This document shows, piece by piece, positions 23,087-48,906 of a DNA stretch of 64,000 bases. The stretch is taken from positions 11,532,001 through 11,596,000 of the forward strand of contig OX597834.1 in the NCBI GenBank assembly GCA_951406725.2, read 5' to 3'. The notes under the pieces were generated by a model. It worked only from the letters and a program-made list of their open reading frames with translations, did no database searches and was not told where the DNA came from. The translations under genes and the position numbers were made by a program. Source of the stretch: Octopus vulgaris (taxonomy: Eukaryota). Position 1 is the stretch's first letter. Every line of letters starts with the position of its first letter.

Positions 23087-23142
<56 letters not shown>

Positions 23143-23775: not shown

Positions 23776-23800
23776 CAGTATAACAGAATATGTATATATA

Positions 23801-24428: not shown

Positions 24429-24467
<39 letters not shown>

Positions 24468-24859
24468 TTTCACCTGACTAACCCCAGAGATATATGTAAG
24501 CAATCTATGCATATACACACTGCATAACCAGTAAGAAAATATTCAATCGAAGATCAAAGAGGCCGAGAAATCCAAAGAGGAATCTATAAAGTTTTAAAAT
24601 GCCTGTAACAAAAATTTCGCACAAAATAGTATGATTTCACATTTATATTCCAGACATTATTTGGGTAAGACTTAATTAGTATAGTAGCAATATTTTAAGA
24701 AAAGAAATGTAATACTGCAAAAATAATTGGAATGCTAAAAATCTGCTGCTTCATATACTTATGTCATAGCTAAGCTGGACATTTACAAGTTTATAATCTT
24801 CCTACACAAATATTTACGTTGGATTTCAGTGGCCATTTCTTTAAAAGTGTCGTTAATTA

Positions 24860-25220
24860 TACCTATTTCTTTACTACCCACAAGTGGCTAAACACAGTGA
24901 GGACAAACAAGGACAGACAAACGGATTAAGTCGATTACATCGACCCCAGTGCGTAACTGGTATTTATTTAATCGACCCCGAAACGATGAAAGGCAAAGTC
25001 GACCTCGGCGGAATTTGAACTCAGAACGTAAAGACAGACGAAATACCTATTTCTTTACTACCCACAAGGGGCTAAACACAGAGAGGACAAACAAGGATAG
25101 ACAAACGGATTAAGTCGATTACATCGACCCCAGTGCGTAACTGGTATTTATTTAATCGACCCCGAAAGGATGAAAGGCAAAGTCGACCTCGGCAGAATTT
25201 GAACTCAGAACGTAGCGGCA
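24860..25220 (-). mobile_element. SINE family B tandem dimer
   Basis: Two head-to-tail units joined at aagaaata|ggtatttcgtct. Confidence 0.85.
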
Positions 25221-25642
25221 ACATCATTTCATTGCGTTCACATCAACACACACACAAAAGAAAAAAAAAAGCATACATACACACTCATAAATATTAGCTA
25301 TAAATCTATCACACCGTCGTCATCTCTTCCACCCTTCCTCTCTTTCCCTCACCCATTCTTTCAGGCTCTCTCTTACTCACTCACTCACTATTCCCCCCAC
25401 ACTTACTCTCTCCATATACGCACGAATTGTGCGCGTACGTGTATATGGGCCTGTATATATAGAAACAGGTGTTGGAGTATGGAAAGCATGTGCTTCCTGA
25501 TTATATAGCTCCGGATTTAGCCACAGTGCGTGGCATATTGGGCAGGTGAATTCTACTCTAGCCTTGAATCGACAAAGGACTTCCAAGTGGATTTAGTTGA
25601 AGGAAACTAAAAAAGCCCATCGAATACACACACACGCAGAGA

Positions 25643-25679
<37 letters not shown>

Positions 25680-26364
25680 TATTTGTACGTATGTATAGAT
25701 ATGCACGCTTACACGCGCATTTACATTCTTACAACCACCTACTATCCTCTCTCTCTCCCTCTCCTTTCTGTCCATTCGTTCATCCTTACTCCTTGCGTAT
25801 TTATAAATATGCATACGCACACACACAAAATTTCATTTCATGAATTACACGTCTTCGTGAACTCAAAATTTCTGCAAAAATTCTAATCGTACATTTATTT
25901 GTTTGGGAATAAAATACACCACTGGAATTCATTTTGCTTAAATAATTAGCTATCAAGTTAGCATCGATGACACAGTATTGGAATACTCAAGTACTAATTA
26001 TGTTTTATATCACGAATTGGATCAATGTTATAATTAACGCTGCTGTAGTTTCTCTCATAGGAAACAATTATATGAAGCATTTGAACGTGATATTTTTGAT
26101 GTATTGCGTTACATATCTGCAGCCTTCTCTTCCAGTGCAGTATCGTACTGTGTTCTCTAGTAGTACAATGCGTTTGCTAAAGCGTATACACAATTGTGGT
26201 TATGATTCGAAATATGTGTCCGGTAAAAGGACACCTAAGTACCAGATGCAGAAATTATTTGAAGTGTTTAGTTACATAGCTACATGCCTTTACTTAATTC
26301 AGTTATGATTGTTTGTGTGAATGTGTGTAATTGTGTGCGCATGTGCCCATTTATATATCTAAGA

Positions 26365-26515
26365 GAGTGTGCTGAAAATGTCCTATTTTGGAGTAAAAGA
26401 AACAACAGGGAGGTCAGTTAATTAGGATTTTATTCATCATGTTGCCTTCTCAGACACACACACTTATTGTAGCAGTCCTTCAGTTTTTCTAAACCCGGTA
26501 AAAGAAGTCACCTTG
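26365..26515 (-). mobile_element. Mariner 3' end fragment (same family as 33650-33835)
   Basis: gctgaaaa.ttcct TIR-like end and cagttaatta.gattttattca shared between the two loci. Confidence 0.5.
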
Positions 26516-27034
26516 AAGACGACGTATGATTGCTAAGCTTTTGGCGAACGATTTGCACAAAAAATTTCTTTATACTGCCCCATTAGCTTATCTGAAAAGG
26601 TGCGTGGTGTACGACACGTTAAGCGTTGAAGTGATCGCAGAAAAACATAAGATGCGTTCAAGAACAGAATGCAATACCCGGTCTGGAAATTGAAACAACG
26701 AACTCCCGATTGTTAGTGCAACACTCTAACCACTAAACAATGCACCCTCGAAACATATATAAATATATTATCATTTCAAACTTTAGCACTATGCCAGCAA
26801 TTTCGGGGAGGGTGTAAGTCGTTTAACATCGACCCCCAAAGAATGAAAAGCAAGATCGACCTTGCTGGAATTTGAATGCCGGTGTATGCCATATGCTTAT
26901 TCAGAATGCGTACTTGAATGTTTCTCTATGACCTTATGTGTGTGTGTATATATTAGACAAATATATATATATGTGTATGCAGGTTATACGTATATTTTAT
27001 ACATATATGTTTTCATATATGCCTATTACATACA

Positions 27035-27283
27035 TTATATTATGATTTGTAATGTATATATATATATATATATATATAGGTTGATAGATACATAAATATA
27101 TAGATAGACTGATAGATATGATGTGCGTGTATATATATGTATATATATATATATACATGTGTGTGTGTATGTGTGTGGAGAACTATATACACATACAGAT
27201 ATATGCAGGCACTTATATTCATTTATGGATGTATGCATATACATCTGATATATATACATACACACACACACATATATATACAT

Positions 27284-27316
<33 letters not shown>

Positions 27317-27323
27317 CACACAC

Positions 27324-27354
<31 letters not shown>

Positions 27355-27399
27355 TATATATATACACACACACATATATATATATATATATACATACAT

Positions 27400-27439
<40 letters not shown>

Positions 27440-27497
27440 ACACACACACACACACATATATATACATACACACACACACACACACATATATATACAT

Positions 27498-27550
<53 letters not shown>

Positions 27551-27574
27551 TACAAACACATATATATATACATA

Positions 27575-27622
<48 letters not shown>

Positions 27623-27629
27623 CATATAT

Positions 27630-27698
<69 letters not shown>

Positions 27699-27920
27699 CA
27701 TACATACACATACATGCACACACACACACACACCTATCTATATCTCATTTTCTTTCTCAATTTCTGTGTTTGTGTATTTTTTATGTGTTTGTATGTTTGC
27801 ATGTGCGCCTGTGTTTATGCGAGTGTATGTGCGTTTGCATACGCGTGCGTATCTGTACGTGTGTGCGTATCTGTGTGTTTGATCCTGTGTGTTTGTGTGT
27901 GTGTGTGTTTGTGTGAATAT
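27035..27920. repeat. Long compound (TA)n/(CA)n microsatellite
   Basis: Directly visible; gives multi-frame spurious ORFs. Confidence 0.95.
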
Positions 27921-28381
27921 TAAGTATGTATTTGTACGGGCAAGTTCAGTTTGCAATTCTGTAACATCGCGTGTAGCGGAGATCTAGAATTTCCCAAACT
28001 TCAATGGAGAAATTGGTGCGTGTCAAATTCTCCGACAACTTTTGGCATATTTTATTTATTTGCTATGAATTATGTATGTCCAGCAGAGACCATACTCTAA
28101 CTAACTAAATTCCGGGATAACGTGTTTTAAGTCCGCGCATTTATCCCCGGTGCACTGGTACACGCACACGATTACGTATCATATATAATTTATACATACC
28201 ACTCACACACACACACATACATATGTAAATATAAACGCATACACACACACACACACATAAATATATATATATATATATGTATATAAATCTATGTATAAAT
28301 ATGCACATATATACCTATATATATATATATATATATACGTATATTTATATACATATATATACATGTATACATGTGAGTACG

Positions 28382-28427
<46 letters not shown>

Positions 28428-28984
28428 GTGTGTGTAGATCATATATATATATATATATATATGTATATATGTGTGTGTAGATCATATATATATATATATA
28501 TATATACGTATATACATATGTGTGCAGATCATATATATATATATATATACATGTGTATGTAGATCATATATATATACATATGCTTGTGTAGATCATATAT
28601 ATACATACATATATATGTGTGTGTGTAGATCATTTATATATAGACATATATATATATCTACATATAATCACACACTGTTACGTTTGCAGTGAGCGTGCCG
28701 TATGCTTATTCAAAATGTAAACTTGAATGTTTCTCAATGACCCCAAGTAACATTGTTAGAGAGAACAGATAATTGTCTTAAATCATAGGGATAACAATTG
28801 AATATTCCTTTATAAACTGGATTTATATCACAATAGTCATTGTTTAAGTTACAAGGATGTTTCAGAAAGCAAGAAGCGGGCTTTTGTAGATAATTTGGCG
28901 GGTTGTGTTTACAGCAGATTAAATATCTAAAAGGCCTATTCAATTTCGAAATGAGAATTTCTGAGATTGTGTGGTACATTAATT

Positions 28985-29192
28985 TACTCTTTTACTTGCT
29001 TCAGTCATTTGACTGTGGCCATGCTGGAGCACCGCCTTTAGTCGAGCAAATCGACCCCGGGAATTATTCTTTTCTAAGCCTAGTACGTATTCTATGTTTT
29101 TTTTTTTTTTTTGCCGAACCTCTAAATTGCAGGGACGTAAACACAACAGCATCGGTTGTCAAGCGAAGTTGAGAGGGACAAACACAGACACA

Positions 29193-29242
<50 letters not shown>

Positions 29243-29266
29243 CGCACACATACACACACACACACG

Positions 29267-29315
<49 letters not shown>

Positions 29316-29465
29316 GATGGATTTCTTTCAGTTCCTGTCTACCAAATCCACTCACAAGGTCGGCCCGAGCCTATAGTAGAAACACTTGCCCAACGTGCCA
29401 TGCAGTGCAACTGAACCCTGAACCATGTGGTTCGTAAGCAAGCTACTTACCACATAGCCACTTCT
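28985..29465 (-). mobile_element. SINE family A
   Basis: Homology; followed by further family A fragments at 29465-29587 (-) and 29730-29897 (+). Confidence 0.85.
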
Positions 29466-30846
29466 CTTTTATTTGTTTCATTTATTTGATTGCGGCCATG
29501 TTGGAGCACCGCATTTAGTCGAGGAAATAGACCCCAGGACTTATTCCTTGTAAGCCTAGTACTTATTCTATCGGTCTATTTTGCCGATATATATATATCA
29601 TTCCATCTTCAGACTCCATCTTGTCAACACCTCAAGTGTAAAATTCTCCGAAGTAAAAATCTCCCTGAAGACGGAGGCGATATTGGACCCAAGTAACCAT
29701 CCTTATTCCGGACCACCAAACTCCCAGAAACCGATACTGGTGTGTTTATGTCCCCCGCTAATTAGCGGTTCGGCAAAAGAGACCGATAGACTAAGTACTG
29801 CGCTTACAAAAGAATAAGTCCCGGGGTCGAGTTGCTCGGCTAAAGACGGTGCTCCAGCATCGCCGCAGTCAAATGACTGAAACAAGTAAAAGAGTAAGGG
29901 TATATATATGTATGCATGTATATACACACATGCACACACATGAAAAATTATGAGGAGTGAAAATTTGAATTATTTGTTTCCAACGTACGTTTCCTCATTG
30001 TGGGTACTGTGCATGTTCTGAAGTGGATGTTCACAGATCGGATGCATTTTAATGAAAACTATCTCATGTGTGTCACACCATACATTTATATTTTTCTCTT
30101 ATGAACTATCGAAGGCCAGGATCCAATTTAATTAGGAACATCCACTGCAGAGTATGCAACTCTTCCAAAACGGTGAAACGTACGGTGAGAAAGAAAATTA
30201 TATAAGTTCTTATAGCAATTTCTATTATGTGCAATAGTAACCACACAACTTTACAGTAAATACTCTGACTGATGATGCACTCATTTGAGAACTAAAGTCA
30301 CCAGTAGTAGAGATACTGCATATTCATGTATGTGTGAATGTGTGTGCATAAGCGAATATGTTTCCATATGTGCGTGTGATTTCGTGAGAGTATGGAGAGG
30401 CATTTATGTTCTATATCATAGTGGAGGATAAAAGTGCAACTAATAAACTTTCAAATAAATATTTCTTTCATGATATAAATCTGCCGTCTATAACATTAAC
30501 ATCAGAAAGATTAAAAGTATAAAAATGAAAGAAAAAAAAAATCAGATAGCACAAACAGAGGCTACACTTTCTTGCATTTATAGCTTCTGGCGCTTTCAAC
30601 ATCAGGCCAAACTCTGCACCTCTTTGGTCACTCTGTGTCATATGTCATCTTGCCACCTCTTCCTCTCTCATCATGCGCTTAGCAATCTATATGTCTGTCT
30701 ATATATATCTATTAAACGACACAAACTGAAACATCCACATATATACTAATAAATTTGTGGATGCTTGTGCTTGGAAAGGTTAAACGAAAGGAGTCACAAA
30801 CTAAGAAAAAAAGGTTAGTAACATCCTCATAATAGATAGCGTGACA

Positions 30847-31241
30847 TCTTTATATATAAAACTAAAGTTGTGTGTCTGTCTCCTACGATTTAGATTCCTA
30901 ACTACTCCCACATTTTGCGGTGCAGTTTAACCAAAACCGAGTATCTTATAGTCGTGATTCATATCGAGCACTTCTGGGTATTAGTGCACGTCTACGATGA
31001 GTCTGTGATTTAAAAAAAAAATTACCATCAATTTTTCCCATTTTTAACGCATTTTTTTCCTATTATATAAGGTAAGTACCTCTCTAAAAATGTATTATTA
31101 AATCTCAGAACGTAAAACGCTACAGTAACACCCCCCTTTGTGGTTAGCCATATTGAGATGGCTATTATACTTTATATCTCTAAAAATGCTTATATAGTTA
31201 TTTCCCTTACAAACACGAACAACGCCGTGCGATACTGTAAG
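30847..31241 (+). mobile_element. Non-autonomous Helitron (diverged)
   Basis: A|TCtttatatataaa start; ...cttacaaacacgaacaacgccgtgcgatactg end; internal match to 63721-64000. Confidence 0.7.
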
Positions 31242-31509
31242 TTTAAAATATAAAAAGAAAGATTTTTTTTTAAAATCATCTATACGTTTCAAAAACTGTA
31301 TTAATTGTTATAGACTTTCATATGTGTGTGTGTCTTTGTGTGTGTGTATGCGTGTAACTTCGTCAGACATTGTTTTACATCAACATTGAGCGTGACGTAT
31401 ACAGACTTTTCCCCGCACACATACATTTCATAAGATCCGAATGTCATAACACGTGTGCGTGTAAATATATGTATATGTGTGCATATGTGTGTGTGTGTGT
31501 GTGTGTTTA

Positions 31510-31748
31510 TAGGTTCCTTTCCGAATCATATAGACTCATCTGGTTGGTTTCGCGGTTTCCATGCCCTATATTTTCCCCACCTGGACGGGACGCCAGTCCA
31601 TCGCAGGCTTACACACTTTTGTCAGCTGGGTAAATGTAGCAATATAAAATAGTGTTTTGCTCAAGAATACAATGCACAGACCAATCCAGATATCGAAACC
31701 GCAATCTTGCGATCATGAATCCAACACCATAAATACTAAGCCACGCGT
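31510..31748 (-). mobile_element. Older tRNA-derived SINE (family D)
   Basis: Minus strand gtggcttagta...gtttcgatatc head and cttgagcaaaacact core; cctgcgatggactggcgtccc segment. Confidence 0.65.
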
Positions 31749-32132
31749 TCCCTAGATAAGTTGTCTCTGTACTGCCTTAGTTTTTTCGCGGTTCTTCTCT
31801 TATGCATATGTGGTTTGTTCTTGATGAATATGTTCGAGATATTTCTCGACATATCAAATAATTAGTAGCACTTAAAGAAATGTATTGAGTCCTTAAAATA
31901 AATGATACCATTCTCTCACTAGATGGAGTAGAAATCATGCTGAGTTTTCTATAATATGGAACAGTACCCCAGAACTTATTCTTCGCAAGCCTTGTACTTA
32001 TTCTAGCGTTCCCTTTTGCCGGATGCAACCAGACCAACATCCGTTGTCAAGCGATGGTTGGGGGATAAAAACACAGACACACAAACATATACACACATAT
32101 ATACATACATACATACACACAGTGGTAGAGTA

Positions 32133-32272
32133 ATATGCTTTATTTAAAGCAGCAGAAGATTCAACAAAACCTCTTACTCTGAGTTTCCCGTTGCAGCAAA
32201 AACTGTCCGATGAACGGAAACGGGAAACTCAGAGTAACAGGTTTTGTTGAATTTTCTGCTGCTTTAAATAAA

Positions 32273-32278
<6 letters not shown>
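32133..32278 (+). mobile_element. Family P2 fold-back element (60-bp inverted arms) with hammerhead motif 32197-32246, inserted in the microsatellite of a family A SINE
   Basis: CAAAAACUGU-CCGAUGA-ACG gaaa CGG-GAAA-CUC A GAG-UA-ACAGGUUUUG; arms 32133-32192 and 32219-32278 with 3 mismatches. Confidence 0.75.
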
Positions 32279-32350
<72 letters not shown>

Positions 32351-32674
32351 GAAGGGCTTCTTTCAGTTTCCCTCTACCAAATCCACTCAGAAGGCTTTAA
32401 TCGGCCCAAGGCTATAGAAGAAGACACTTGCCCAAAATTTGTTAACGGTCAGACATTGAGACCAGAAATATTGGCATTGACGTAGCGACACTTGAAGTTT
32501 TGTCTTGGTGAATCTACCCGAAGAGAACTAATCAAATTTACGTTAACAAGCGTAATTTGGAAAGTTCGAAACCTAGGTCCTAGATTATCCACATCTGGGT
32601 TGCACATTTATTTAATGTTCTCACTACAGGTCATATGAACTTTTTTATGTTTGCCCCCTAGCATTTTTGCCAGT

Positions 32675-32747
<73 letters not shown>

Positions 32748-32750
<3 letters not shown>

Positions 32751-32930
32751 CGGGAAGCTTTATGAAAATAAACAAAACGCGAAGGCAGGTGGAATACAAA
32801 CAAACAATTGTATTAGTATGGCGCTCAGGAATATAAATAAAACAAGTCTTTTACGTTTCGAGCCTACGCTCTTCAACAGAAAGGTACACAGAAAAGAAAC
32901 ACGGAAAGAAACAAGGAGAGAAAAAAATAT
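32748..32930 (-). mobile_element. Family P1 element with hammerhead motif (32848-32883)
   Basis: CUUU-CUGUUGA-A-GAGC guag GCUC-GAAA-CG-UA-AAAG; flanked by (TA)n. Confidence 0.75.
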
Positions 32931-33535
32931 ATATATACAAATTGGGACAAGAACGCAAAACATCCAGATAGACGATACAAAAATCACGGACGGGTCATTC
33001 GAAGCTTTTAATCTTCAGTCAAGACCCGGATCATCCTCGCAATTTCGGCTGAAGCTTTACTATAGCGTCGTATATTATCGACTGCTATTTCCAGTAAAGA
33101 TTGTTGCAATATTGCACCACTATCCTACATATATATGTATATCACGGACAGTATTTCATATATATATGTAAGTAAACACGTCTCGTGATCAATGCTAACC
33201 CGAGTGTAAGTAATAGATGCATGCATGATAATGAAAACTTTTCAAAGGAAATAGTCATTTCAGATTCAAACGAGATAAGATTATACTCTACATTTCTAGC
33301 TCGCATTGTCAAGGCCACACTCAGTAGCGTGTTGTATAAATTCCTATTCAGATATTATCAGATTCACTTTGCTACAAATTATGATCAGATATTTTAAGTA
33401 GATAGTCAAAACTGAAAACAGATGAATGATAAATTTTCAGATATGTCATTCATATATTTATACTTATATCTCTCCTCTGTCTGTCTCTTTCGCTCTCTCT
33501 ATCTATCTATCTATATATATATCTATCTCTATATC

Positions 33536-33570
<35 letters not shown>

Positions 33571-33953
33571 CTCTATCTCTCTATCTATGTATCTATCTAT
33601 CTCTCTATCTATGTATCTATGCATCTCTCTCTCTCTCTATGCATATCTGTGCGTGGATGCTGAAAAGTTCCTAGCTTTAGGTAAAGGAAACTACAGTTAA
33701 TTATGATTTTATTCAAAATATTTGCCTTTCAGATTCACGCATTTTATCCAAGCCCCGTAAAATAACTACAAAGGATGAGTCACCAGCCAGGCCTTTTGTG
33801 ATATACATCAAGCCAGGGATATTCTCCTCCTCTGCCTCCATACATACAACTACTTGTATCTATTTCTTTCTGCAAACAGAAACACGCGTACACACTCGCA
33901 CATATAAATAACACTGTTTCTGAAACAACCGAAAAGTCCTACACGCCATCTTG

Positions 33954-34004
<51 letters not shown>

Positions 34005-35017
34005 ATGTGTGTGTGAGTATGCATATATATGAGTATATATATATGTAATATTTGTATGCATATATATATATGTATGTGTGTGTGTGAGTATGTATATATA
34101 TAAGTATATATATATGTAATATTTGTATGCATATATATATATGTGTGTGTGTGTGAGTATGTATATATATGAGTATATATATATGTAATATCTGTATGCA
34201 TATATATATATATGTATGTATGTGTGTGTGAGTATGTATATATATATGAGTATATATATATATGTAATATCTGTATGCATATATATGTATGTGTGTGTGT
34301 GTGAGTATAGACAATCACATACGTATATTCCTATAAAATAAAACATGCTCCCATGCGTATATTCATTCAATTTGTGTATATGCATTTATGAACGTGCATT
34401 TACATACAGAAATATATACATATATATATGCACACAGACACACATATATATATATATATATATCATTGTTATTATTTTCAAATGTGTATGTCAAACTTTG
34501 GACAAATGCTTTATTTTCACTCTGTATTTTTGCCAACAATAGCCGGTTCTTTTAGTCAAACTATCGTATCTACATCTTTCTCAAAGTTACTACAACGATT
34601 TTGCTATGGAATGGTGAAACTATTTTATCGCTTTCCAAAAAAAGCAACGTTTTGAACTCACGACACTTTTGCATAATAGCAACGATATATAAACACACAT
34701 ACATGCATATTCTCCTCTGCTTTTAATTACCTAAATATTTCCCCTTAGAAAGGAATTGGTTACTAAGTAAGATACAAATAGCCATCGTTGGATCATAGAT
34801 GACAAAAACAATGCCCGATTTTAAACTTCAGAGATGTTATACACATTTATATTCTTCCACTTACAGCTTGTATTTGTAATATGCGAGTTAATTGTCGTCT
34901 TTACCTGTGTTTTTTTTCATCTCTTTTTCATCTGAGTACTCGAGCGTATCCACATTGTCACTTAAATTTACTCACAAATAATGTGCGTGAATTATTATCA
35001 CTATATATGTATATTTT

Positions 35018-35215
35018 TTTTACTTGTTTCAATCATGTGACTGTGGCCATGCTGGAGTACCGCCTTTTTAGTCGATCAAATCGACCGCAGGACTTATTCT
35101 TTCTAAGCCTAGTACTTATTTTATCGGTCTCTTTTTTGCCGAACCGCTAAGTTACGGGGACGTAAACACACCAGCATCGGTTGTCAAGCGATGTTGGAGG
35201 GACAACACACAAACA

Positions 35216-35261
<46 letters not shown>

Positions 35262-35384
35262 AACATAATCAAATAGGATAATAAAATAAATTATTATTAC
35301 GAGTGGACTAGCACAAAAGACGAATTAGTCATTAGACTATATATTTTTCGTATAGAAATATAATAAAATAAAATAAAATATATT

Positions 35385-35427
<43 letters not shown>

Positions 35428-35591
35428 AGACGGGCTTCTTTCAGTTTCCGTCTACCAAATCCACTCACAAGGTTTTGGTCGGCCCGAGGCTATAGCAGAA
35501 GACACTTGCCCAAGATGCTACGCAGTGGGACTGAACCCGGAACCATGTGGTTGGTTAGCAAGCTACTTACCACACAGCCACTCCTACGCCT
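35018..35591 (-). mobile_element. SINE family A with ~130-bp insertion in its internal (TA)n
   Basis: Tail 35018-35215, head 35428-35591. Confidence 0.85.
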
Positions 35592-35773
35592 ATATATGTG
35601 AATTTATGATCTGGATGTAGAAGGAGCAGATTTGTAAGCCGCTGTTCACAGTTGTCCTCTTTCTCTTTCATTTTCAAAGAAATATTCATATCAGCAAGAG
35701 AGCGGACCACTCTGATGGTATATACTTTATCTTGTGTGTCTCAAAGAACAATAGGGTTCCCAAAGACTTGAAG

Positions 35774-35805
<32 letters not shown>

Positions 35806-36655
35806 GTACTTGGAGAAGAAGAACGGTACGAAACGAACGAATCGAATCGAATCGACGCGAGGGCGCTCAGTCATACAATAGTGTAATAAATAAAATATAT
35901 GCATACATACATACATATATGTACGTACCTACATCTACATGTATATATACATGCATATATAAATATATATACGTGAGTACAGGACACCACAAATAGACGT
36001 AGAACTCATCGAGAAACGAAAACGGAAAAACAAGCATGGAACAAACCATTTTTTACAACAGAAAAACAGAGTACAAGACTAACTACACAAGGAAAAATCC
36101 CCTTCATCAGCTGTCCCTAGTTCAAATCCAGCGTACATGCATGTATGTGTGCGTGTTGCTGGTTACTGAACTAAATATATGTAGATTGATGACGAATAAA
36201 TATCTGTGCACAGTAGATTCTTCAACATTTAAATGTAAATCAGTTTTGCAAAACTAAAGAAAAAGATTGAGGCTTATTGCCATTTTGAATCTAGAAGTTC
36301 GCTGTACTTTTACGTAAGATATAGACATAGATAACAATTGAGAAGTATCTGGAAATTGATAGATTAATTTGAATGGCAATGTTGGTACGGTGCAGAATAA
36401 AATTCCGTAAACGTGTAGTGTTAGATTATTTACCGACGATTGTAGACAATATCCGATGTATGGGATCTGAGTGTTTATTTCGTCGTGTGTATAGTCAAAC
36501 GCATGACTAATGTTTATTTACCTACCTAATAACGAACGTACGTGCCCTCCTACCTACCTACCTATCTCGCCCTTTATATATACGTGTATATGTATATATA
36601 TATATATATATATAACAAGTCAAGATAGAAAATGCTAAAATAATTTTATAAAGAA

Positions 36656-36703
36656 CATTTCAGTACCGGTTTCCGTCTTTTTGAGACCTTTTCAACTGTA
36701 ACG
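36656..36703 (-). ncRNA. Minimal type I hammerhead-like motif with U3-A8 core
   Basis: CGUUACAG-UUGAAAA-G-GUCU caaaa AGAC-G-GAAA-CCGG-UA-CUGAAAUG; palindromic ACCGGU stem III, GUA site. Confidence 0.65.
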
Positions 36704-36735
36704 ATTAAATAATTAAATTTAGAAAAATTAAAAGA

Positions 36736-36825
36736 AAAGTTTTTTTAAAGGAATATTTGTATAGTGTTCAATATATATATATATATATATTGAACACTAT
36801 ACAAATATTCCTTTAAAAAAACTTT
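36736..36825. repeat. Perfect 90-bp palindrome centred on (AT)n
   Basis: aaagtttttttaaaggaatatttgtatagtgttca(at)10tgaacactatacaaatattcctttaaaaaaacttt. Confidence 0.95.
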
Positions 36826-36889
36826 AATATATATATATATATATATATTTGTTGGCTAAACTGGCAAAATGACCATTCCGAAATATAAC

Positions 36890-36922
<33 letters not shown>

Positions 36923-37355
36923 CAATATATACATAACTATATACAAACATATATAAGTATTAAAGAATCTTTGTATTCTCTATAAATGGTCACTGTGACC
37001 ATTTGACATTGACCTAGTTTTCCTAATACATATTTTGTTTGCCAAATAGTAGTAAACGGCCTCTGTAGCATTACAACCCCCTCTACCTCAATTTCTTTAT
37101 ATAGAACTTTGACATCTATTTCACCCCTATTTCTATAAATAGAAACTTTTTCTTGTCTCCTTTCAATTGGTCATTCCTCCCAAACCTTCTAGCTGTTCAA
37201 AACAACTGAATATTCTGAATATTCTTCAGTCAGTTGATAAACTCTACTACCTTAATGTTCTTAAAATTTAAATCGACATCTTATATCTATATATCTACAT
37301 TCTCTGTAATGTTATCAATTGATATGAAAATTATGTTTTAATGGAAAACCTTTAT

Positions 37356-37447
37356 TAATGGCTGATGATTGCTCAACATTTTAAAACTGTTGTAATACTT
37401 ACAACATTTAATAAAATGATGTAGCGTGAAACGATCGTACCAAATTA
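37356..37447 (+). ncRNA. Type I hammerhead ribozyme motif, canonical core with long stem II
   Basis: UAAUGG-CUGAUGA-[~59-nt hairpin incl. UGUUGUAA uac UUACAACA]-GAAA-CGAUCG-UA-CCAAAUUA; predicted cut after A37439. Confidence 0.75.
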
Positions 37448-37487
37448 CCGAAGTTATTCTTGTTGCTTATTTTGCTTATATATATAT

Positions 37488-37563
37488 AAAGAGAAAACAC
37501 AATGCGAGGACGTGGAACAAGTATAGTGTTACTGGACGCTCAGGAAAGGAAAGACACGTTTCG
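37488..37563 (-). mobile_element. Truncated copy of the P1b element (homologous to 53670-53740)
   Basis: aacactatacttgttccacgtcctcgc shared. Confidence 0.7.
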
Positions 37564-38175
37564 GTGTGTGTATGTGTATGTGAATGTGCTTGTGTGTATG
37601 TGTATATAATAAACGGGAGGAAATAAATAATACAATTAACTATTACCTATGATAAAATATACTGATAACTATGTTGTGTGCTGGAATCGTGTATAATATG
37701 AAATTTAAAATGCTGCAATAACGATTTTTACTATTACTACATTTTATATATTTTAAATACAACTGTTTTCCAAATTGAATCATGGGAAGTAAGGATATAA
37801 GATTCAGTTATATAAATTAAAAAGGTATAAATACCGAGAGTTTTTATGAATATATTGAATTAATGTAAAAGAAAAACACTATCAAATATAAAATCGATAC
37901 ATTTTTATTTACGCTATTAAACGATACAAAATCTCAATGTATGTGAAATTGGATTAATTAAAACGAAATAATCTCTCATGGATGTTTGTAGGAACAAATT
38001 ATTAAAGGAAGTTGGATAATTTAATTTGAATTCATAAAATGAGTAGAACTGTGGAAAACCATAAAGAAATCAGACTCTGAGCAGAAATGTAAATAGTAAA
38101 ATGCTCAAACTGAACGATTGCTATAGACACCACAAATAAACGTAGAACACAACGAGAAACGAAATATATATGTAT

Positions 38176-38388
38176 GGCAGAAACGTTAGCACGCCGGGCA
38201 AAATTCTTAGCAGTATTTCATCTGTCTTTATGTTGTGAGTTCAAATTCCGCCGCGGTTGACTTTACCTTTCAGAGTCCATTAAATATGTAGCAGTTACGT
38301 ACTGGAGTCGATGTAATCGATTCAATCCCTTTGTCTGTCCTTGTTTGTCCCTTCTATGTGTAGCCCCCTGTGGGCAATAAAGGAATAT
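38176..38388 (+). mobile_element. SINE family B
   Basis: Homology; shares 3' flank with the 40347 copy. Confidence 0.85.
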
Positions 38389-38494
38389 ATAAATACACAT
38401 ACACTGTGTGGTCTTACCTAGAAAACATACAGATTTTTGAGGAGTAGTAACTTATAATTTATATAAAGTATGTATGCGGATTTAAATATTATTT

Positions 38495-39036
38495 TCTACC
38501 CTCGGCACAAGGTTCAAATTTTGGCGGGAGAGGGCCAGTCAATTAGATCGACCCCAGTATGCAACTGGTACTTAATCTATCGACTCTGATAGGATGAAAG
38601 GCAAAGTCGACCTCGACGGAATTTGAACTCAGAAACATAAAGACAGATGAAATACTTATTTTTTTACTACCCACAAGGAGCTAAACACAGAGAGGACGAA
38701 CAAGGACAGACAAAGGGATTAAGTCGATTATATTGACCCCGAAAGGATGAAAGACAAAGTCGACCTTGGCGGAATTTGAACTCAGAACATAGCTGCAGAC
38801 GAAATACCTATTCTTTACTACCCGCAAGGGGCTAAACACAGAGGACAAACAAGGACAGACAAACGGATGAAGTCGATAATATATCAACCCCAGTGCGTAA
38901 CTGGTAGTTATTTAATCGACCCGAGAAGATGTAAAGCAAAGTCGACTTCGGCGGAATTTGAACTTAGAACGTAACGGCAAACGAAATACAGCTACGCATT
39001 TCGCCCGGCGTGCTGACGTTTCTGCCAGCTCGCCAC
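38495..39036 (-). mobile_element. SINE family B tandem trimer
   Basis: Three head-to-tail units; junctions at ~38650 and ~38805. Confidence 0.85.
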
Positions 39037-40346
39037 TTTTAATCGATCTTCGAATCTTATTGTGTTCTCATCAGATGCGTCTACATCTTTCTGACGGTCT
39101 CTTATGGAAATTTGAATATTAACTAGGAAACGGTTAAATTTTCTTTAAGTATATTCGCTGAGAGGATTTCTTTTTATATTCAATGTCTTTAAAATTGTTA
39201 AGAGCGATCAAAAAATATAGAGGTGCGATTTATCAAATATTTCAGGTTATTGTAAAAATGAATTTATGATCTGTTATAATTTACTGAATTTAAAACACGA
39301 TAAAGGGAAAATATTATCTATAGAGCTTAGGAATTAAAGAACATAATAATTGGTGATAGAACGTGTTAAACGGTAATAAATAAGAGATAATCAGATTGAA
39401 ATGCATTAGCTAAGGTAAATTATTGTAAAAGTTTCTGGAGCTGACGTCGTCAGTTTGAGAATTCAAAAACTTCAACGTTTAGGTAAAGAAAATAACAATT
39501 AGTGCTTACACGATGATATGAATGAGTGTAATTTAGAGGAATTAAGAGAAGAAAGATAAAAAAAGAAATAAAATTGTGATACACAGTTGTCAGAAGGAAA
39601 TATTCGAGGTATTAGAGCGCTATTCTTCTACTTTTAGAGTATTGCTTAAAAACTGTCTACTTAAGAAGAGATCTTATATGTCTTTAAGTGGAATGATAAG
39701 TGGTATCGATAATTGTGAGCGCTCTACAAATGTGTAAAAAAAAATAGCGAAAGTGGTTTTAGCTAAGGCTTGTGTTTCTGACGTGAATCGCAAGATACAA
39801 CGTCTATAGGAGACTTGGGCGTTGTAGTACTGCATACGTATGCTATCTGTACGTAATCAAATGTAATTTGAAGCCATAGTATGTTAAATATGCTACACGG
39901 AATGAATTGCGTGTTGTTATATACACACAAATGCTGTTAATTAATGAAATTAGGTTTACTAGAAATGCCTATATATGTAAATGTATATGTAGGATACAGA
40001 AAAAACTCAGGTCTTATTCGAATAATGCTTGTGAAAGAAATTGGGGAGGGGTGTTTAAGCCGGAATGATTCGAACAAAGTATGCAAAACCAAATATCATG
40101 TGGAGCTAATTAATAGCATAAATAACTCTATAACGTTACTACGTCGCGTCAAAAATTAGTATCCCAAATTTTTATTCTTCATTACGTATCGCCCTAAATA
40201 AAGTATACAAAGCTACATTGCACAATACATTTGTCTCTCTCTCTCTCTCTCCGTATATATATATATAGGGAAAATTCACAAAAAAAAAAAAAAAAAAGAC
40301 GAAGACAGGTGGTGTAGACAACAAGCAGATGTTTATATATATGTGG

Positions 40347-40577
40347 AGGCGATGAGCTGGCGGAAATGTTAGCATGCCCGGCGAAATTCTTAGCAGTATT
40401 TCATCTGTCTTTATGTTCTGAGTTCAAATTCCGCCGAGGTCGACTTTGCCTTTCATCCTTTCGGAGTCGATTATATAAGTACCAGTTACGTACTGGAGTC
40501 GATGTAATCGATTCAATCCCGTTGTCTGTCCTTGTTTGTTCCTTCTATGTGTAGCCCCCTGTGGACAATAAAGAAAT
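40347..40577 (+). mobile_element. SINE family B
   Basis: Homology. Confidence 0.85.
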
Positions 40578-42570
40578 ATATAAATACGCATAAACTGTGT
40601 GATCTTGCCTAGAAAGCTTTTGACCTGGGTCTTGTTAGTGAAAACTGATCAGCCAATAAAGACCACTAAAGAGAATAAAATACGACACAATAAATTTAGT
40701 AATAATTATTTCTGTTGTAGGAAAAATGCCTAAAATTTCGGAAGAGGGAATTAGTTTCTTTGATTCCAGTGCTCAACCGGCAAATATTTCATCATTTCTG
40801 GAATGATGAAAGTCAACTTCTGTGGCATTTGAACTCAGAACATAGACCCTGATATTCCACGAAGTACTAATGATTCAGACCACCTCACCCACTGTGAGGA
40901 CTTAGTAACTTTGGCTTCAAAATTTCGCGCAAGGGCCGCAATTTGTGAGGAAGGGTAAGTCGATTGTATCGACCACAGTGAATGGTACTTATTTTATTGA
41001 CCTCAAAAGGAATAAAGGAAAAGTAGACCTAGGTGGAATTTGAACTCAGAACAAAGACGGACGAAATATCGCTAAGCACTTTGTCCGCCGTGTTAATGAT
41101 TCTGTCCGCACACTCCCTTCAAAAACACAAAAGTAAATAAAATAGGAAATTATATTGATTTTAAATTTTGGCACAAGGCCAGCAATTACGGAGGAGTGGG
41201 TAAGCCGATTTGAACACGGGCGTAAAGACAGGCGAAATGCCACCGAGCATACAGCATACTTGCTTTATTGATTCATAATTATTTAATATTGTTGTTACTA
41301 TTGCAGCTTAAATGGATGCCATTCCCGATCGAACTGGCCTTTTAGTTATAGAATATTTAGTCTATGTACAACAGCCGTCAATCGCAATAGATTATGATTT
41401 GCCAAATTGTACCATGATTTCGCTAATTGTTTTAGGTGTTCATGTAGTCAGGACAAGACATCGATCCACACTCTGATTCTACCCTTTCAAATTTTCCCGG
41501 AGACATATAAAGAATCTCAAAGATGGATGGAGATAAGCCAGCCACCGGAACTGGAATTACACTCTTTGTATCACCAACCTGAATAAATAAAGCGAAATCA
41601 TTCTAAATGGGTGGGGTTGAATTCAGAGCTAATTTATCCTAGAACAAATATTGCAATGCTTTATATCCCAAGTTTCAATAAGTCAACAAACAGACGGACG
41701 TTTATCGTTTCTAAATCTCAAATCTTTATGACTTCAGAGAAAATCCAGCTGTTATTCTTAGGTAGTTCTAAAATTATCGAGTGGAATGCATTTTTTTTTA
41801 TATGTGTATATTCTATCTATTTTAAACACGACTGTTTTCCAATACGGAATCTTATCCATCAATTCGTATAACATAATGAACAATACGTTTTACACTTAAC
41901 TCATTCCATATACCAATCTATTTCTCTATCAGTTCCTTACACAGAAGACAAAAGCAGGAAAATAATCAATGAATCATTTTCTTTTACTGAGTAAATTCTG
42001 TTTTATTGTTATAATAATCTATTTGTTTTTACTCTTCAATTAATATAGTTTTTCTTGTGTCTCTCTTTTTACATTTTTGTACTAGATAAATGTTTTCATA
42101 TTCACAAAAGAAAACAAAATACTTCATGATTACAATTTATTTTATCATTCTTGTTTATTTCTTTCTTTTGTTTTTAATTCGCTGTTGATGTTGTTGCTGC
42201 TGTTGTTGTTATTTGTATTCTTACAGATGTTGTAATTTCAATGCATTCAGAGAATACACTGAGGGCTCTTGTATGGAAATCTATTCATCTTTTATGTATT
42301 AAATATGTTTCTATTTTTCCTTTGCAGATATATGTCAATGTGTATCTCTGTATATCTCTTCTACCGCATACACACTTTTTTTTTTCCCTCTCCACACATC
42401 TCTCGCGATCTCTCATATACAAATAAAAATCTATACACAAGAAAATAAGGCAGAAATAAATGAGAATACACACATCTATATATATGCTTAACTGCATGCA
42501 TATATGTGTGTGTGTGTTTGCATGTTTGTACACACGCAGACACTCACACACACAGATATACATACACACA

Positions 42571-42602
<32 letters not shown>

Positions 42603-42654
42603 TTATGTATACACATATGTATATGTACATATACATATATATATATATATATAT

Positions 42655-42965
42655 ATGTAGATATACATATATTTACATATACATATGTAGATCTACATAT
42701 GTATGTATATATATATATATATACATACGTAGATATACATACATGCATACATACATATGTAGATATACATATGTAGATATGCATACATACATATGTAGAT
42801 ATACATACATGCATGCATACATACATATGTAGATATACATACATGCATGCATACATACATATGTAGATATACATACATGCATACATACATATGTAGATAT
42901 ACATACATGCATACATACATGCATACATACATACATGCATACATACATATGTAGATATACATACA

Positions 42966-42970
<5 letters not shown>
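42655..42970. repeat. Minisatellite atgtagatatacatac(atgc)n
   Basis: About 9 variable units. Confidence 0.85.
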
Positions 42971-43010
<40 letters not shown>

Positions 43011-43892
43011 GTGTATATATCTATCTATCAATCTGTGTGTGTTTGTGTGAGCGAGTGTGTGATGGTGTGTGTGTGTTTTTGTGAGCGAGTGTGCGATGGT
43101 GTGTGTGTGTAGCAGTATGAGAAATTTGAGTATCATAGCAGTAACGTTTTATGAAAGACATTTAATCACTGGCAGTACACAAGGTCTCAAGAAATAGTCG
43201 GAGTGATTAATTTCTTTCTTTCTCCGTATCTAACAGGCATGTAAAATTATCTTTAACTATTTTGATATCTCACAATAACGAAATTATGGGGTACTTACTG
43301 GATGTCGGACCGTCACCCTCTAGAATTATTTTTTAAGAATAATCAGGCTTTGCCTTTTAATATATTCTTTTCTACTCTAAAAGCAAGGCCCGGCACTTTT
43401 GGGGTAAAAGAACCAGTGGGTTAGATCGACCCCAGTATGCGACTGGTAATTAATGTATTGAACCCGAAAGTATGAAAGGCAAAGTTGACTTCGACGGAAT
43501 TTGAACTCAGAACGTAAAGAGATTACAGACAAAATGACTAATCATTTCCTGTACAATATTCAGTGTTTTTTAGCTGACTTCCCCAGCGATTGATACAGAA
43601 ATAAACCAAGAACAGATGTTGACGCAAAATGGTTATTTAATGCCTCGACAAGAATTAATAAATGTCTTTAAATTGTTGTAAAATATTCAGAGAACTGTAG
43701 TAAAGGAATGAAACTTGTGACACTAGAATACGAACCACATTCCAACGGTGTCACAGCTTTGAAGACAGGAGCTAGACAAATATAGTAATTACTTTCACTC
43801 AGTCGTCCATACCGTCATAAGACCTATATATATGTATGTATGTATTATATACACACGAACTTGTTACATACGCATATATTTACAACCATACA

Positions 43893-43934
<42 letters not shown>

Positions 43935-44061
43935 CTTGCTACATACGTATACATTTACATACATACATACATACATTCAAGGTGGTAAAAATTGTGGAAA
44001 AATAGTATTCGAACACCAGAGGTAAAGTAATATGCTTTATTAAAAGCAGCAAAAATATCAC

Positions 44062-44108
44062 AAAATTTGTTACTCAGAGTTTCACATTATCGTTCGTCAG
44101 TCAATTTT
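44062..44108 (-). ncRNA. Family P2 hammerhead motif (canonical core, damaged stem I)
   Basis: AAAAUUGA-CUGACGA-ACG auaa UGU-GAAA-CUC U GAG-UA-ACAAAUUUU; inverted partner at 44613-44658. Confidence 0.65.
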
Positions 44109-44280
44109 GTTTATATATCGAAATAAGGTGATTAAAATCACAATAAACAAAAAGTACGATCGTACTGCATTATCTCTGGATATCCTTGTTCCTTATTTTG
44201 ATTATTATCACCTTATTTTTTTGAAATTTATGGATAATACCGTACTGAATAATGATGCCTTAACTTAAGTGTGTGTGTGT

Positions 44281-44566
44281 GGAGGCGCAATGGCCCAGAG
44301 GTTAGGGCAGCGGACTCGCGGTTTCGATTCCCAGACCGGGCGTTGTGAGTGTTTATTGAGCGAAAACACCTAAAGCTCCACGAGGCTTCGGCAGGGGGTG
44401 CGGGGTGGCGATCCCTGCTGTACTCTTTCGCCGCAACTTTCTCTCACTTTTTCTTCTGTTGGCCTGCTTGTTTATCCAGCGGGGTGGCGTCATTTGAAGG
44501 CTAAAACAATGCGAAGCGCACTGTGACCAGCGATGTGTAGCAACTTCTAATACCTGGTCGGTGACG

Positions 44567-44570
<4 letters not shown>
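44281..44570 (+). mobile_element. SINE family C, tail type 2
   Basis: Homology; ends in (TA)n. Confidence 0.85.
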
Positions 44571-44609
<39 letters not shown>

Positions 44610-44612
44610 TCT

Positions 44613-44658
44613 CCGACGAACGGTAGCGTGAAACTCTGAGTAACAGTTTTTGTGATAT
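44613..44658 (+). ncRNA. Family P2 hammerhead fragment (5' stem I strand missing)
   Basis: CCGACGA-ACG guag CGU-GAAA-CUC U GAG-UA-ACAGUUUU. Confidence 0.55.
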
Positions 44659-45200
44659 ATATGCATTCACACCTACGCGGGAACGAAGGAATGAAATGAA
44701 TTCTCAATGATATTTATTGATTATAGTTTCAAAACTGAAGTAACAACAATCGTATCTTATGTTCATCATCAAGAACACATGTAGCAAATGCACTAATCAT
44801 TTTGTCTGCAATAATTTTAATGAATTGCAATTATGTTTTATAATTATGGGGTGATAATGACAATAACAACATCAAACAACAACAACAACAACATCAAAAA
44901 TATAAATGACAAAGATAATTATAGTAATGATGATGATGTTGATGACGATGACGACAATGATAGTGATGATGATGTTAATAATAATAATATTGACAATAAT
45001 AATAATAATAATGATAATAATAACAATAATAATAATGATACTAATAATAATTAGCCAAAACTGTTCATACATGCCAACGAATAAAGTGCTAATACATGAG
45101 GTTAAAAATTGCTATGTAAAATCTTTGTGATTGCTGAGGATGTTATACAATGAATATTTGAAGCATTCGATGAAAAAGAAATCCCGGACACAACCTGAAA

Positions 45201-45706
45201 CCTATATATATATATATAAAACTCAACTTGTGTGTCTGTGTGTATGTCTGTGTGTGTATCTGTGTTTAACTTCCCGACACATCTCTTCCTAGCCAACAAA
45301 TCGTAGAACCACCAAAAATGGGTCACTTAAAGTTTAGGCGAATGAAAATTGAACTGCGCTATTTCTGTTCCGAAATTCATCTCGCTAGTGCAAAAATCGA
45401 TAATGTGTTTGTTTAGGCCTTATCCCATGAACTGTACTCAGTTAGCTGTTTGACGTGAACTGTGTTCACCACGTGTGGAAGCATGCGTAAATTGCATGAA
45501 AAATAAATAAAAAAATCAAGATATAAAAACGAATCGCCGTAAATATTGTAGAAATTTTGCAAAGAAATGAATTTTCGGGATGTAGCCTGGAGGTTTTTTT
45601 TCGTATTAATCGTTTGGATTTGTGAACACATACCAATTGTTTTCATAACATTTTTAACGCTTTGAATTAAATGTGACCATTTTGCAAAGCCGGGCAAAAC
45701 TGCTAG
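45201..45706 (+). mobile_element. Non-autonomous Helitron, second family
   Basis: ctatatata...aaaactcaacttgtgtgtctg start; gcaaagccgggcaaaactgCTAG|T end. Confidence 0.65.
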
Positions 45707-46139
45707 TATCATATAATACAAAAACAAATACAATAAAATGACATACTGTATAACCCAACAATACACCGGTGGGAACCCATCTGCTATCTCGGGGAAAACT
45801 ATCTCACGGATCACATACTGTCTCTGAGTGCAATGATAATCGGGAGCATCACAAAGCTCCCTACAAGATACTTTTTCCATTGGTGATAGTGAAAGTGTGC
45901 CGCCTGCTCGTTGTATTTTGAAAGATTTATCTTTTCTACTCTAAGCAAACGGCCCGCAATTTTGGGAGGAAGAGGCCAGTCGATTATATCGATTCTAGTA
46001 CGAAACTGCTACTTAATTTATCGACCCTGAAAGCAAAGTCGAACGCGTCGGAATTTTGAGTGAATAATATGAAGTATTATTCATCTTGTCTCCACCTATA
46101 TCGATATCTTTTACCTGACAACTACAAATGGTACTGTGA

Positions 46140-46457
46140 AGACGCATGGCTTAGTGGTTAGATGTTTGCTTACAATCGTAATGCCGTGACTTCAATTCCT
46201 GGCGATAAGTTGTGTCTTTGAGCAACACGCTTTATTTCACGTTGTTCCAGTTCTCTTCGCTGGCAAAAATTAATTATACCTGTAATTCAAAGGGCCAGCC
46301 TTGTCGCACTCTGTATCAATCTGAATCTCCCAAAGAACTTCGTTAAGGGTACACGTGTCTGTGGAGTGTTCAGCTACTTGCACGTTAATTTCACGAGCAG
46401 GCTGTTCCGTTGATCGGTTCAACTCGAACTCGCGTCGTCGTAACCGATGGAGAGCCA
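46140..46457 (+). mobile_element. Chimeric SINE: family-D-like head with family C type 1 tail
   Basis: Tail matches 10440-10590; head differs. Confidence 0.7.
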
Positions 46458-48906
46458 ATTACGAATGGGGCCATAAAATATTCACCTAATTGTAAATGAC
46501 TATTAGAACATCGCCATTCGTTTGCAGCAGCATGAACTTAATATTAACCATAGAATATGACCCTGTTGTAGTGTTCTCCGCCTCCTGTGTTTAGGCATTA
46601 ACCCTTTCCCTCGCTTTTGTTTATTTCTGCCCACTTCATATACTTCCTTTTCCTCGGCCTTCATCAAGAGAATGAGTGGCGACGGGGAAATGAAAAGAGA
46701 GGGCGGGAATTTTACCGGTATAAATCAATTGAGCGATTGTAATAAAATAGAAAAATTATCCAGGCGGAATTTCTAAGGAAAAAGAAGAATGAAGGCTTAA
46801 TATTAATATTATACAGTTACATAAGGCGGTGAGCTGGGAAAATTTTCATCACGCCGACAAAACGCCCAGCGGTATTTCATTTGTCGTTACGTCTGATTTT
46901 AAATGCCATAGAGGTCGACATTTTCTTTCATCATTCCGGAGTCGGTCAAATAAGTACCAGCTGTGCGCTGGTTTCGAAATAATCGACTTTAACCATCTCT
47001 CAAAATTGTTAGCCTTCTTTCAAAATTTGAACTCAATATTACTATTTTACGTTTGTCTTTATGTTTTAAGTTCGAATTTTATCAAGGTCGACTTTGCTTT
47101 TCAGCCTTTCGGATCGAGAGAAGAATTAGCTGGGGAACATTGGGGTCGATGTAATCTACTTAATTCCTACTCGAAATTGTTGCACTGTGCCAAAATTGGA
47201 AACCGATAGAATATCGTTAAATATTTACTGTTTACATTTTTACGGGATATTTCTACGAAGGCTTTTGTTGGGGAGCAACAGGTAATCATAAGATGCTATT
47301 AAATAGAACTAAAGATTTTACAGGGATTTATTATTTTAATGGAGATTGGGGATATGTAAAGTAATTTCCAACAGAAACACCAATTTCTAAATAAATATTA
47401 CGATGTTCATTTTCCAATAATTTACTGTTTTCTTCCTTTATTTTATTTGCTGTAATGCAATCTTAATGACATAGAAAATATGGGGCTAGTTTATTTAAAG
47501 CTTTGCTATTTAATATAAGCATTAATATATTTTAAACGAAAAAAATATGGCAAAAAAATCGTTGTATCGACGTAAACATAACCAGTTATCCAACGAAATG
47601 TTTTCGTTCGTTGAGATGTCTTTACAAACGGCGATTATCGTTTCGTTATTATCTCGTTCAATTAGTTTGTTATTGGTTGTACAGATAATGTATAGTATTA
47701 CAAAGTTATTTATTTCAATATATTTCTTGAAGGATATGCACCGAATGACATGGAAATATTTAGCCTATTTTCTTAATATTTTAATACATGAATCTACTTG
47801 AACACTGCCGATATTAAACGTAACTTGTCTCGTGAAAATATTTGAATAAGAAAACATTGGTATCAGAACAAAAATGTTTGCAATACTATGATTTTAGTTG
47901 TATGCTTCAAATATCTTTGTAAGAATATAATCATTGTATATACATACATACACTCACACATATGTATACATCACACACACATATATATACGATGAGAGAT
48001 TGATATAAAAAGATCACATAAGCAGAGCAAATATATTTACTCACTATCATACTTGAGCGTACACATAGAGAGATAAATATGCATATAAGCACAGACACAT
48101 ACACACATAGTTAATTATTGCTTTTTAAATATTTGCTACCGTGTCACATCGCATGAGTTTATAAATAATATCAATAAGGACAGACAACCTCCAATTTTGT
48201 TTGTCTTACATGGTCTCTCAACACAGCATTTTACATATTGTTATTTATAACTTCATGTGATGTGCTTCAAGAGTCAATATTACAAAGAAAGAATTATTTC
48301 GCGTTCTCTCGAAAGTTATTGATACTTATTGATATCGAAAATATTATATATGTATAAGAGCGTGTGAATGAGAGAGAGAGAGACACACACAGACAGAAAG
48401 CGAGGGAGAGAAAGAGAGAGTTTGTGTGTGTGTGCATGCAACCATAGCCCCACTTGCGTATTTGCGTAATTGTCTGTCTGTATGTGTCTCTTCTCATGCT
48501 CGCCTTTCCTTTGCAGAGATCCTTATAAAAATAAACCTTAAAAGAACCTCACAAACACATTGGGACGCACACAATACTCAGGTACGAATGTATATTTAGA
48601 CAAACAAATATTCTCGCTAACACAACTCCCACTGGCTTATTTCTTTTTCATGAACGCTCATCATGAACGTAGGTTAATGAGACGGTTGTGATCTATAAAC
48701 AGTCTTGAGAAGGAACCAGAAAGAGACGTGTGAACATGCAATGCGTATGTGCACAGTGGATTCATAAAACGGAAGACAAGAATAAAACTAGTTATATGGT
48801 GGTCTGCAGGCCACATCTGACACTACTATGATGCAGGCTTGCTGCATTTTTTCTCGTTCTTTAAATCTTTCTCTCTCTCTTGCACGAAGATATAAGTGTT
48901 ACTTAC

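Follow-up and report, generated by a model that had tools for sequence, protein, structure and literature searches.

Hammerhead ribozymes with a U3-A8 pair in the core are already known from the ends of Penelope-like elements (PLEs); to these our analysis adds, at the level of sequence, one octopus family. The U3-A8 pair has been reported as a natural covariation (PMC3088659), and the Cercyon PLEs of Schistosoma mansoni carry U3-A8 minimal hammerheads (min-HHRs) with about 1,300 matches, most of them solitary (PMC4209133). The preliminary description of the locus studied here, which called U3-A8 a known natural variant, thus agrees with both publications. The min-HHR consensus has an extra base between A9 and 10.1, and several published PLE hammerheads are without it (PMC4209133, PMC8557442). 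For PLE hammerheads a dimer mechanism has been proposed, in which monomers are inactive and the activity of dimers is low (PMC4209133), and the hammerhead of an Anolis PLE cleaves only in the presence of the element's protein (PMC11167929). Catalytic mutations in this hammerhead do not prevent insertion in vitro (PMC11167929). PLEs of the Hydra clade insert into (TA)n, have a hammerhead near their 3′ end and are present in Octopus bimaculoides (PMC8557442), and in O. vulgaris PLEs account for 6.83% of the genome, in 190 families (PMC13282606 supplement).

We analysed a window of 64 kb (64,000 nucleotides) of O. vulgaris DNA, in which the minus strand has, from 36695 to 36664, the layout of a type-I hammerhead with a U3-A8 core, GAAA and a palindromic ACCGGU stem III (Table 1). 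We are fairly confident that this motif is a type-I hammerhead of the dimer type and belongs to an abundant PLE family of octopus, that it derives from a 157-nt, 5′-truncated 3′ end of an element inserted in (TA)n, and that the copy in the window is a lone passenger. By core numbering on the minus strand, U3 is at 36695, A8 at 36690 and A9 at 36689; G12 to A15.1 run from 36673 to 36670, CCGG from 36669 to 36666, and U16.1 and A17 are at 36665 and 36664, so that the palindrome ACCGGU occupies 36670-36665. The sequence has all the parts of a type-I core, namely N3-UGA-N7-N8-A9, a Watson-Crick pair at 3-8, G12-A13-A14-A15.1 and U16.1-H17. The cut is predicted 3′ of GUA, between 36664 and 36663, which is where the preliminary description had expected it. 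Stem I has seven pairs out of eight: three adjoin the core and are followed by an A.A mismatch and by four more pairs, one of them G.U. In stem II of the window copy a G.G opposition (36688/36674) precedes GUCU/AGAC, and the stem is not closed by a 10.1-11.1 pair. The layout that had been read earlier from the letters (a 7/8 stem I, GUCU/AGAC, GAAA-CCGG-UA and the G.G opposition) is all present on the minus strand. The flanks, U-rich on the 5′ side and AU-rich on the 3′ side, fit the PLE minimal hammerhead when compared with the consensus of Cervera and De la Pena (2014), and ACCGGU provides the palindromic 15.2-16.2 and loop 3 region of a dimer-type stem III that is another mark of the PLE minimal hammerhead.

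Table 1. Coordinates of the putative hammerhead, its repeat and the host gene in the window
Feature	Position	Strand	Remarks
Hammerhead core U3-U4-G5-A6-A7-A8-A9, U3-A8 variant	36689..36695	-	From sequence and contigs of 4/4 runs
Stem-loop II	36674..36688	-	Window copy: basal G.G, then 4 pairs, 5-nt loop
G12-A13-A14-A15.1, stem III and cleavage triplet GUA	36664..36673	-	From sequence
Stem I, 5′ strand	36696..36703	-	From sequence and folding
Stem I, 3′ strand	36656..36663	-	From sequence and folding
Stub of abundant interspersed repeat, 157 nt	36615..36771	-	3′ end near 36615, 5′-truncated at 36771
(TA)n microsatellite at 3′ end of stub	36575..36614		49 nt downstream of the cut site
(TA)9 spacer and 36-nt inverted copy (36790-36825) of the 5′-most bases of the stub (36736-36771)	36772..36826		Foldback at truncation point
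Host intron, 34.4 kb	14504..48906	-	Kainate-type ionotropic glutamate receptor gene
Exons of kainate-type receptor (GRIK2-like)	49074-48907, 14503-14351, 9634-9533	-	tblastn, in-frame AG/GT boundaries

The U-rich tract on the minus strand (36696-36745) ends in CAG directly before U3 and resembles a 3′ splice site. This CAG is kept in a minor variant of the family in spite of other letters upstream, as seen in the contigs described below. In Penelope of D. virilis the end of the intron is the 5′ side of helix I (PMC4209133), and splicing at the CAG before U3 would take away the 5′ strand of stem I.

Among the described systems, the Cercyon hammerheads of S. mansoni (families Sm3 and Sm4) are like the octopus motif in being type I, in U3-A8, in a palindromic 15.1-16.1 region and in their U-rich 5′ and AU-rich 3′ flanks, and the Sm4 example also reads UUGAAAA (PMC4209133). 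Unlike Cercyon, the octopus family is without the extra base after A9, carries a palindromic insert of 4 nt in stem III and has A17, whereas the two U3-A8 examples of Cercyon that are printed have G17 and U17 (PMC4209133). Hammerheads of the Hydra clade (Hydra-2_aMil, Penelope-1_NV and Hydra-1_oBim; PMC8557442, File S2) share with the octopus family a short stem II and an extended palindromic stem III. Of the 26 Hydra-clade rows listed in that source, 12 have A17 and several are without the extra base, as in the octopus family, but all 26 have C3-G8 where the octopus family has U3-A8, and its sequence is in none of them (PMC8557442). Assignment of the octopus family to a clade needs the ORF. 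The PLE hammerhead of Marsupenaeus japonicus likewise has a 4-bp stem II, no extra base, a 4-nt stem III palindrome and A17 (PMC4209133, Fig. S3), but its core is C3-G8 and its stem sequences are other ones. A search of the literature for hammerheads and octopus found no paper on the family of the stub, and the supplement of Craig et al. contains none of three motifs taken from the stub, two of 13 bases and one of 11.

The stub has no second copy within the 64-kb window. Words of its family were found in public sequencing runs: among 24 runs listed, 20, which come from nine studies and carry four organism labels, contain 0.64-0.73 of 11 sampled words; no run listed as RNA was among them. A profile of the family was compiled from contigs of four public runs, in which 3055, 2536, 977 and 209 contigs matched the stub; the depths given below are sums over contigs, not numbers of copies, and the variants are unphased. 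In all four runs the loose ends of contigs past 36771 continue into a shared sequence, which indicates that the window copy is 5′-truncated. Past 36614-36617 the loose ends lead, again in all four runs, into mixed TA-rich sequence, indicating that the 3′ end of the family adjoins (TA)n at many sites. The idea that the sequence beyond 36771 is coding was abandoned, as the loose ends include two variants that an indel of 10 nt sets apart. The repeat combines several PLE-like traits, namely a hammerhead near a defined 3′ end, 5′ truncation and a high, interspersed copy number, with insertion in (TA)n as in EN+ PLEs of the Hydra or Neptune type, the latter seen both in the window copy and in the TA-rich loose ends. 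A Penelope-like parent is likely, of which the stub would be the 3′ end, with no linked ORF: the window has 384 ORFs after filtering, and a Pfam search of the 150 longest found no RT or GIY-YIG ORF. With regard to a possible pLTR or inverted copy, the 36-nt foldback at the 5′ edge of the stub stops short of its 3′ end. Near-perfect foldback palindromes were seen at 36736-36825, centred on the (TA)9, and at 16990-17067, and the two could be products of template switching or assembly artefacts. Neighbouring stubs in the window likewise consist of a hammerhead followed by (TA)n.

The profile allowed the window copy to be compared with its family. In none of the four runs did a variant reach 3% at 36689-36695, 36670-36673 or 36664-36669, and this uniformity of the core and stem III marks U3, A8, the palindrome and A17 as features of the family. 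The preliminary description would have been contradicted by copies that lack UUGAAAA or the stem pairing; in the contigs of the four runs the other copies retain both. Two positions of stem II differ. At 36674 the window letter makes up at most about 0.6% of the depth, C11.1 being the family letter in 71-92% and U11.1 in 8-29%, and at 36678 between 97 and 99.7% of the depth differs from the window letter. The majority form of stem II has a 7-nt loop and four pairs, the first of which is G10.1-C11.1; G 36688 pairs with C11.1, and no base is left unpaired between A9 and 10.1. Both the G.G opposition and the fourth GUCU/AGAC pair are thus private mutations of the window copy: they are there as first read, but they do not describe the family, which closes its stem with G10.1-C11.1. 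A single genomic copy may mislead on structure, as these two private mutations altered the apparent stem II. The suggestion that the G.G opposition weakens this copy is borne out by folding, in which the pair probability of stem II is 0.36-0.39 in the window copy and 0.97 with the majority letters of the family. Possible compensatory changes, all unphased, are A-U at 10.1/11.1 in a minor variant and C-G in place of G.U in stem I. At the 3% threshold 13 of the 157 positions are variable, and because the family is so uniform overall, the invariance of the 17-base core is not significant (P = 0.21 over 157 nt). A value of P = 0.008 over 36651-36703 was discarded, since the ends of this interval are set by the variable sites themselves.

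An alternative origin of the stub, which we think unlikely, is a non-autonomous hammerhead-bearing element (a non-LTR retrozyme or a SINE-like derivative) instead of an ORF-bearing PLE. Metazoan non-LTR retrozymes resemble the octopus family in their type-I hammerhead with a short palindromic stem III, and some of them work better as dimers (PMC7229834). The 4-bp stem II of the family without an extra base, together with its short palindromic stem III, is close to the canonical metazoan type-I HHRs (PMC4209133), no ORF is linked to the stub among the 150 examined, and retrozymes have been proposed to derive from PLE pLTRs (bioRxiv 10.64898/2026.07.22.740005). However, retrozymes are head-to-tail tandem repeats of 150-450 nt (PMC7229834), whereas the stub is single at this locus and has a defined family end that abuts (TA)n, and its stem I has only three core-adjacent pairs as against the canonical six. 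We therefore retain the 3′ end of a PLE as the preferred origin.

The palindrome in stem III points to pairing between two molecules. In folding, an intramolecular stem III carries a penalty of about 5 kcal/mol, and a stem III of 6 bp is obtained only when two molecules pair; these are predicted to fold into a double hammerhead with this stem as the intermolecular helix (probability 0.85-0.92 for the window copy, 0.91-0.99 with the majority letters). The pair probability of stem I is 0.73-0.94 in the 48-nt motif and falls to 0.00-0.34 in longer context (0.00 in 181 nt and 0.33 in 271 nt for the window copy). A U3-A17 pair across the cut site is predicted with a probability of 0.77-0.86 in monomers and 0.71-0.83 in dimers, where it is worth 2.2 kcal/mol. 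By comparison with the C3-G17 trap that has been described for a hammerhead (PMC3884650), this pair can be regarded as a putative trap in the whole octopus family. A literature search for U3-A17, G3-C17 and C3-G17 hammerheads led to PMC3884650 only, and U3-A17 did not occur among its results; Lunse et al. (2017) and Przybilski and Hammann (2007) may cover the activity of U3-A8 and the U3/A17 combination.

By analogy with published PLE hammerheads, we propose that in the parent element two copies would pair through the palindromic ACCGGU and form a double hammerhead, possibly with the help of a protein, and that this would cut after GUA, by which the RNA of the element would be processed. As far as its sequence indicates, the family would do so with U3-A8 instead of C3-G8. 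The window copy is solitary and has lost G10.1-C11.1 by private mutation, and it would be a passenger in the host intron whose cleavage is probably very slow or nil. It is probably nearly inert, because the 10.1-11.1 pair is lost, there is no partner in the window and stem I is weak in context.

The intron belongs to a gene for a kainate-type ionotropic glutamate receptor. Pfam ANF_receptor matched two ORFs among the 150 scanned, one of which led, at 98% identity, to a 951-aa kainate-type glutamate receptor whose cluster includes GRIK2-like proteins of Octopus vulgaris, O. bimaculoides and Argonauta. Exons were mapped by tblastn with the window protein P0003 and with named Octopus GRIK2-like proteins, at 86-100% identity. 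The hammerhead lies between the first two exons of Table 1, in sense orientation, and should for this reason be transcribed together with the receptor pre-mRNA; the other intron of the gene in the window is 4.7 kb long. The sense orientation in a 34.4-kb intron, the abundance of the family with its invariant palindrome and the prediction that a homodimer of the window copy still folds as a double hammerhead would all fit a function in the host, in which this copy would pair in trans with further members of the family and so cut the pre-mRNA of the glutamate receptor. We consider such a function very improbable, as G10.1-C11.1 is privately lost, a second copy is missing from the window, the pair probability of stem I falls to 0.00 and 0.33 in 181 and 271 nt of context and U3-A17 can close over the cut site, and as published min-HHRs show no activity as monomers and little as dimers (PMC4209133) and the Anolis PLE HHR needs the protein of its element (PMC11167929). 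We hold equally little expectation for a wider model, in which the U3 and A17 fixed throughout the family would be a built-in brake, switchable by a protein or by splicing at the CAG, and sense intronic copies would cut host pre-mRNAs conditionally in trans. A family with fixed U3/A17 would offer a simple test for selection of slow or protein-gated cleavage, and it would become relevant to octopus neural gene expression only if cutting of host pre-mRNA were demonstrated. The motif is most likely a PLE-end hammerhead of the published U3-A8 type, and this copy a worn passenger.

To judge how often such a motif is met, we used two descriptors. The first had a single site in the 64-kb window, the minus-strand motif at 36695. 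The second additionally permitted an extra base after A9, an unpaired base that is common in PLE hammerheads, and had three sites in the window, at plus 53629, minus 110 and minus 36695, with C-G, G-C and U-A at 3-8, respectively. In 250 dinucleotide shuffles it found on average 0.10 matches per window with any kind of 3-8 pair, at most one, and a U-A match in two of the 250, rates which flatter the result, as the descriptor was composed after the motifs had been seen. As many as 10 of the 25 chance matches in the shuffles were also Watson-Crick at 3-8, so that three Watson-Crick pairs in three sites add little by themselves. The folding energy of the motif was unremarkable (z = -0.01). A search of the window with Rfam found no family at its gathering score, and at the motif the models of the hammerhead clan CL00010 stayed below their gathering cut-offs; Hammerhead_HH9, which had the lowest local E-value (0.11), scored 15.9 bits where the cut-off is 52. 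Over the whole window, the best 150 of 528 Rfam matches by E-value were almost all microsatellite-driven miRNA. Metagenome contigs scanned with two DNA patterns gave no match, and of 24 viral-contig matches to a looser pattern only one passed a weak stem filter, so that they were regarded as chance. The sequence at plus 16715 (UUGAAAA...ACGGAAA) was considered as a second copy and rejected, as it fails the descriptor and folds poorly. The better hammerhead fit of the majority letters of the family is the stronger evidence for a genuine motif. That an unrelated repeat should resemble a hammerhead here by chance is hardly credible: the unremarkable folding energy, the scores below Rfam thresholds and an AT-rich DNA that favours a U-A core would agree with it, but U-A matches were rare in the shuffles, the majority letters restore G10.1-C11.1 and raise stem II to 0.97, which is unexpected for a chance match, and the motif lies near a (TA)n-abutting 3′ end as in PLE HHRs (PMC8557442).

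The occurrence of C-G, G-C and U-A at the 3-8 pair within one window had been taken in the preliminary description as an argument for function. The observation itself holds, but the argument drawn from it is not supported as it stands, as the sites are separate repeat stubs, and those with C-G and G-C have no blastn match to the stub at 36615-36771. The three pairs are independent known core types and not covariation within one family alignment, and they are uninformative on the function of the copy at 36695.

The best-formed hammerhead motif in the window is at minus 110-77, on the sense strand of the host gene. It has G3-C8, an extra G after A9, a 5-bp stem II, an AAUAUU palindrome, U17 and a 7-bp stem I, and its folding z is -2.72. 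In the literature examined, natural cores with G3-C8 have poorer documentation than those with U3-A8. At plus 49890 there is a hammerhead-like motif with C3-G8, the 3′ half of which is broken, and it has letters of stem I and stem II in common with the motif at minus 110. The two may be related, in which case C-G versus G-C would be a real exchange, seen in two copies only.

Two further families of hammerhead stubs were observed in the window. One comprises the copies at 3970+, 22964+, 32879- and 61539+ and a related one at 53629+, with the hammerhead about 100 nt upstream of (TA)n. In this family A9 is followed by an additional A and stem II has 4 bp. In three of the four close copies A6 is replaced by U, while the relative at plus 53629 has an intact C3-G8. 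The other family (32207+, 44613+ and 44100-) has stem I, stem III and A17 as in Hydra-2_aMil, and the sequence at 32133-32278 is an inverted pair.

Other repeats of the window include the families at 8264-8506, 6738-7144 and 10205-10416, which are interspersed, about 200-400 nt long and present in many copies, and which are probably octopus SINEs. A tandem array of ten 35-nt units with 98% matches lies at 62655-63003.
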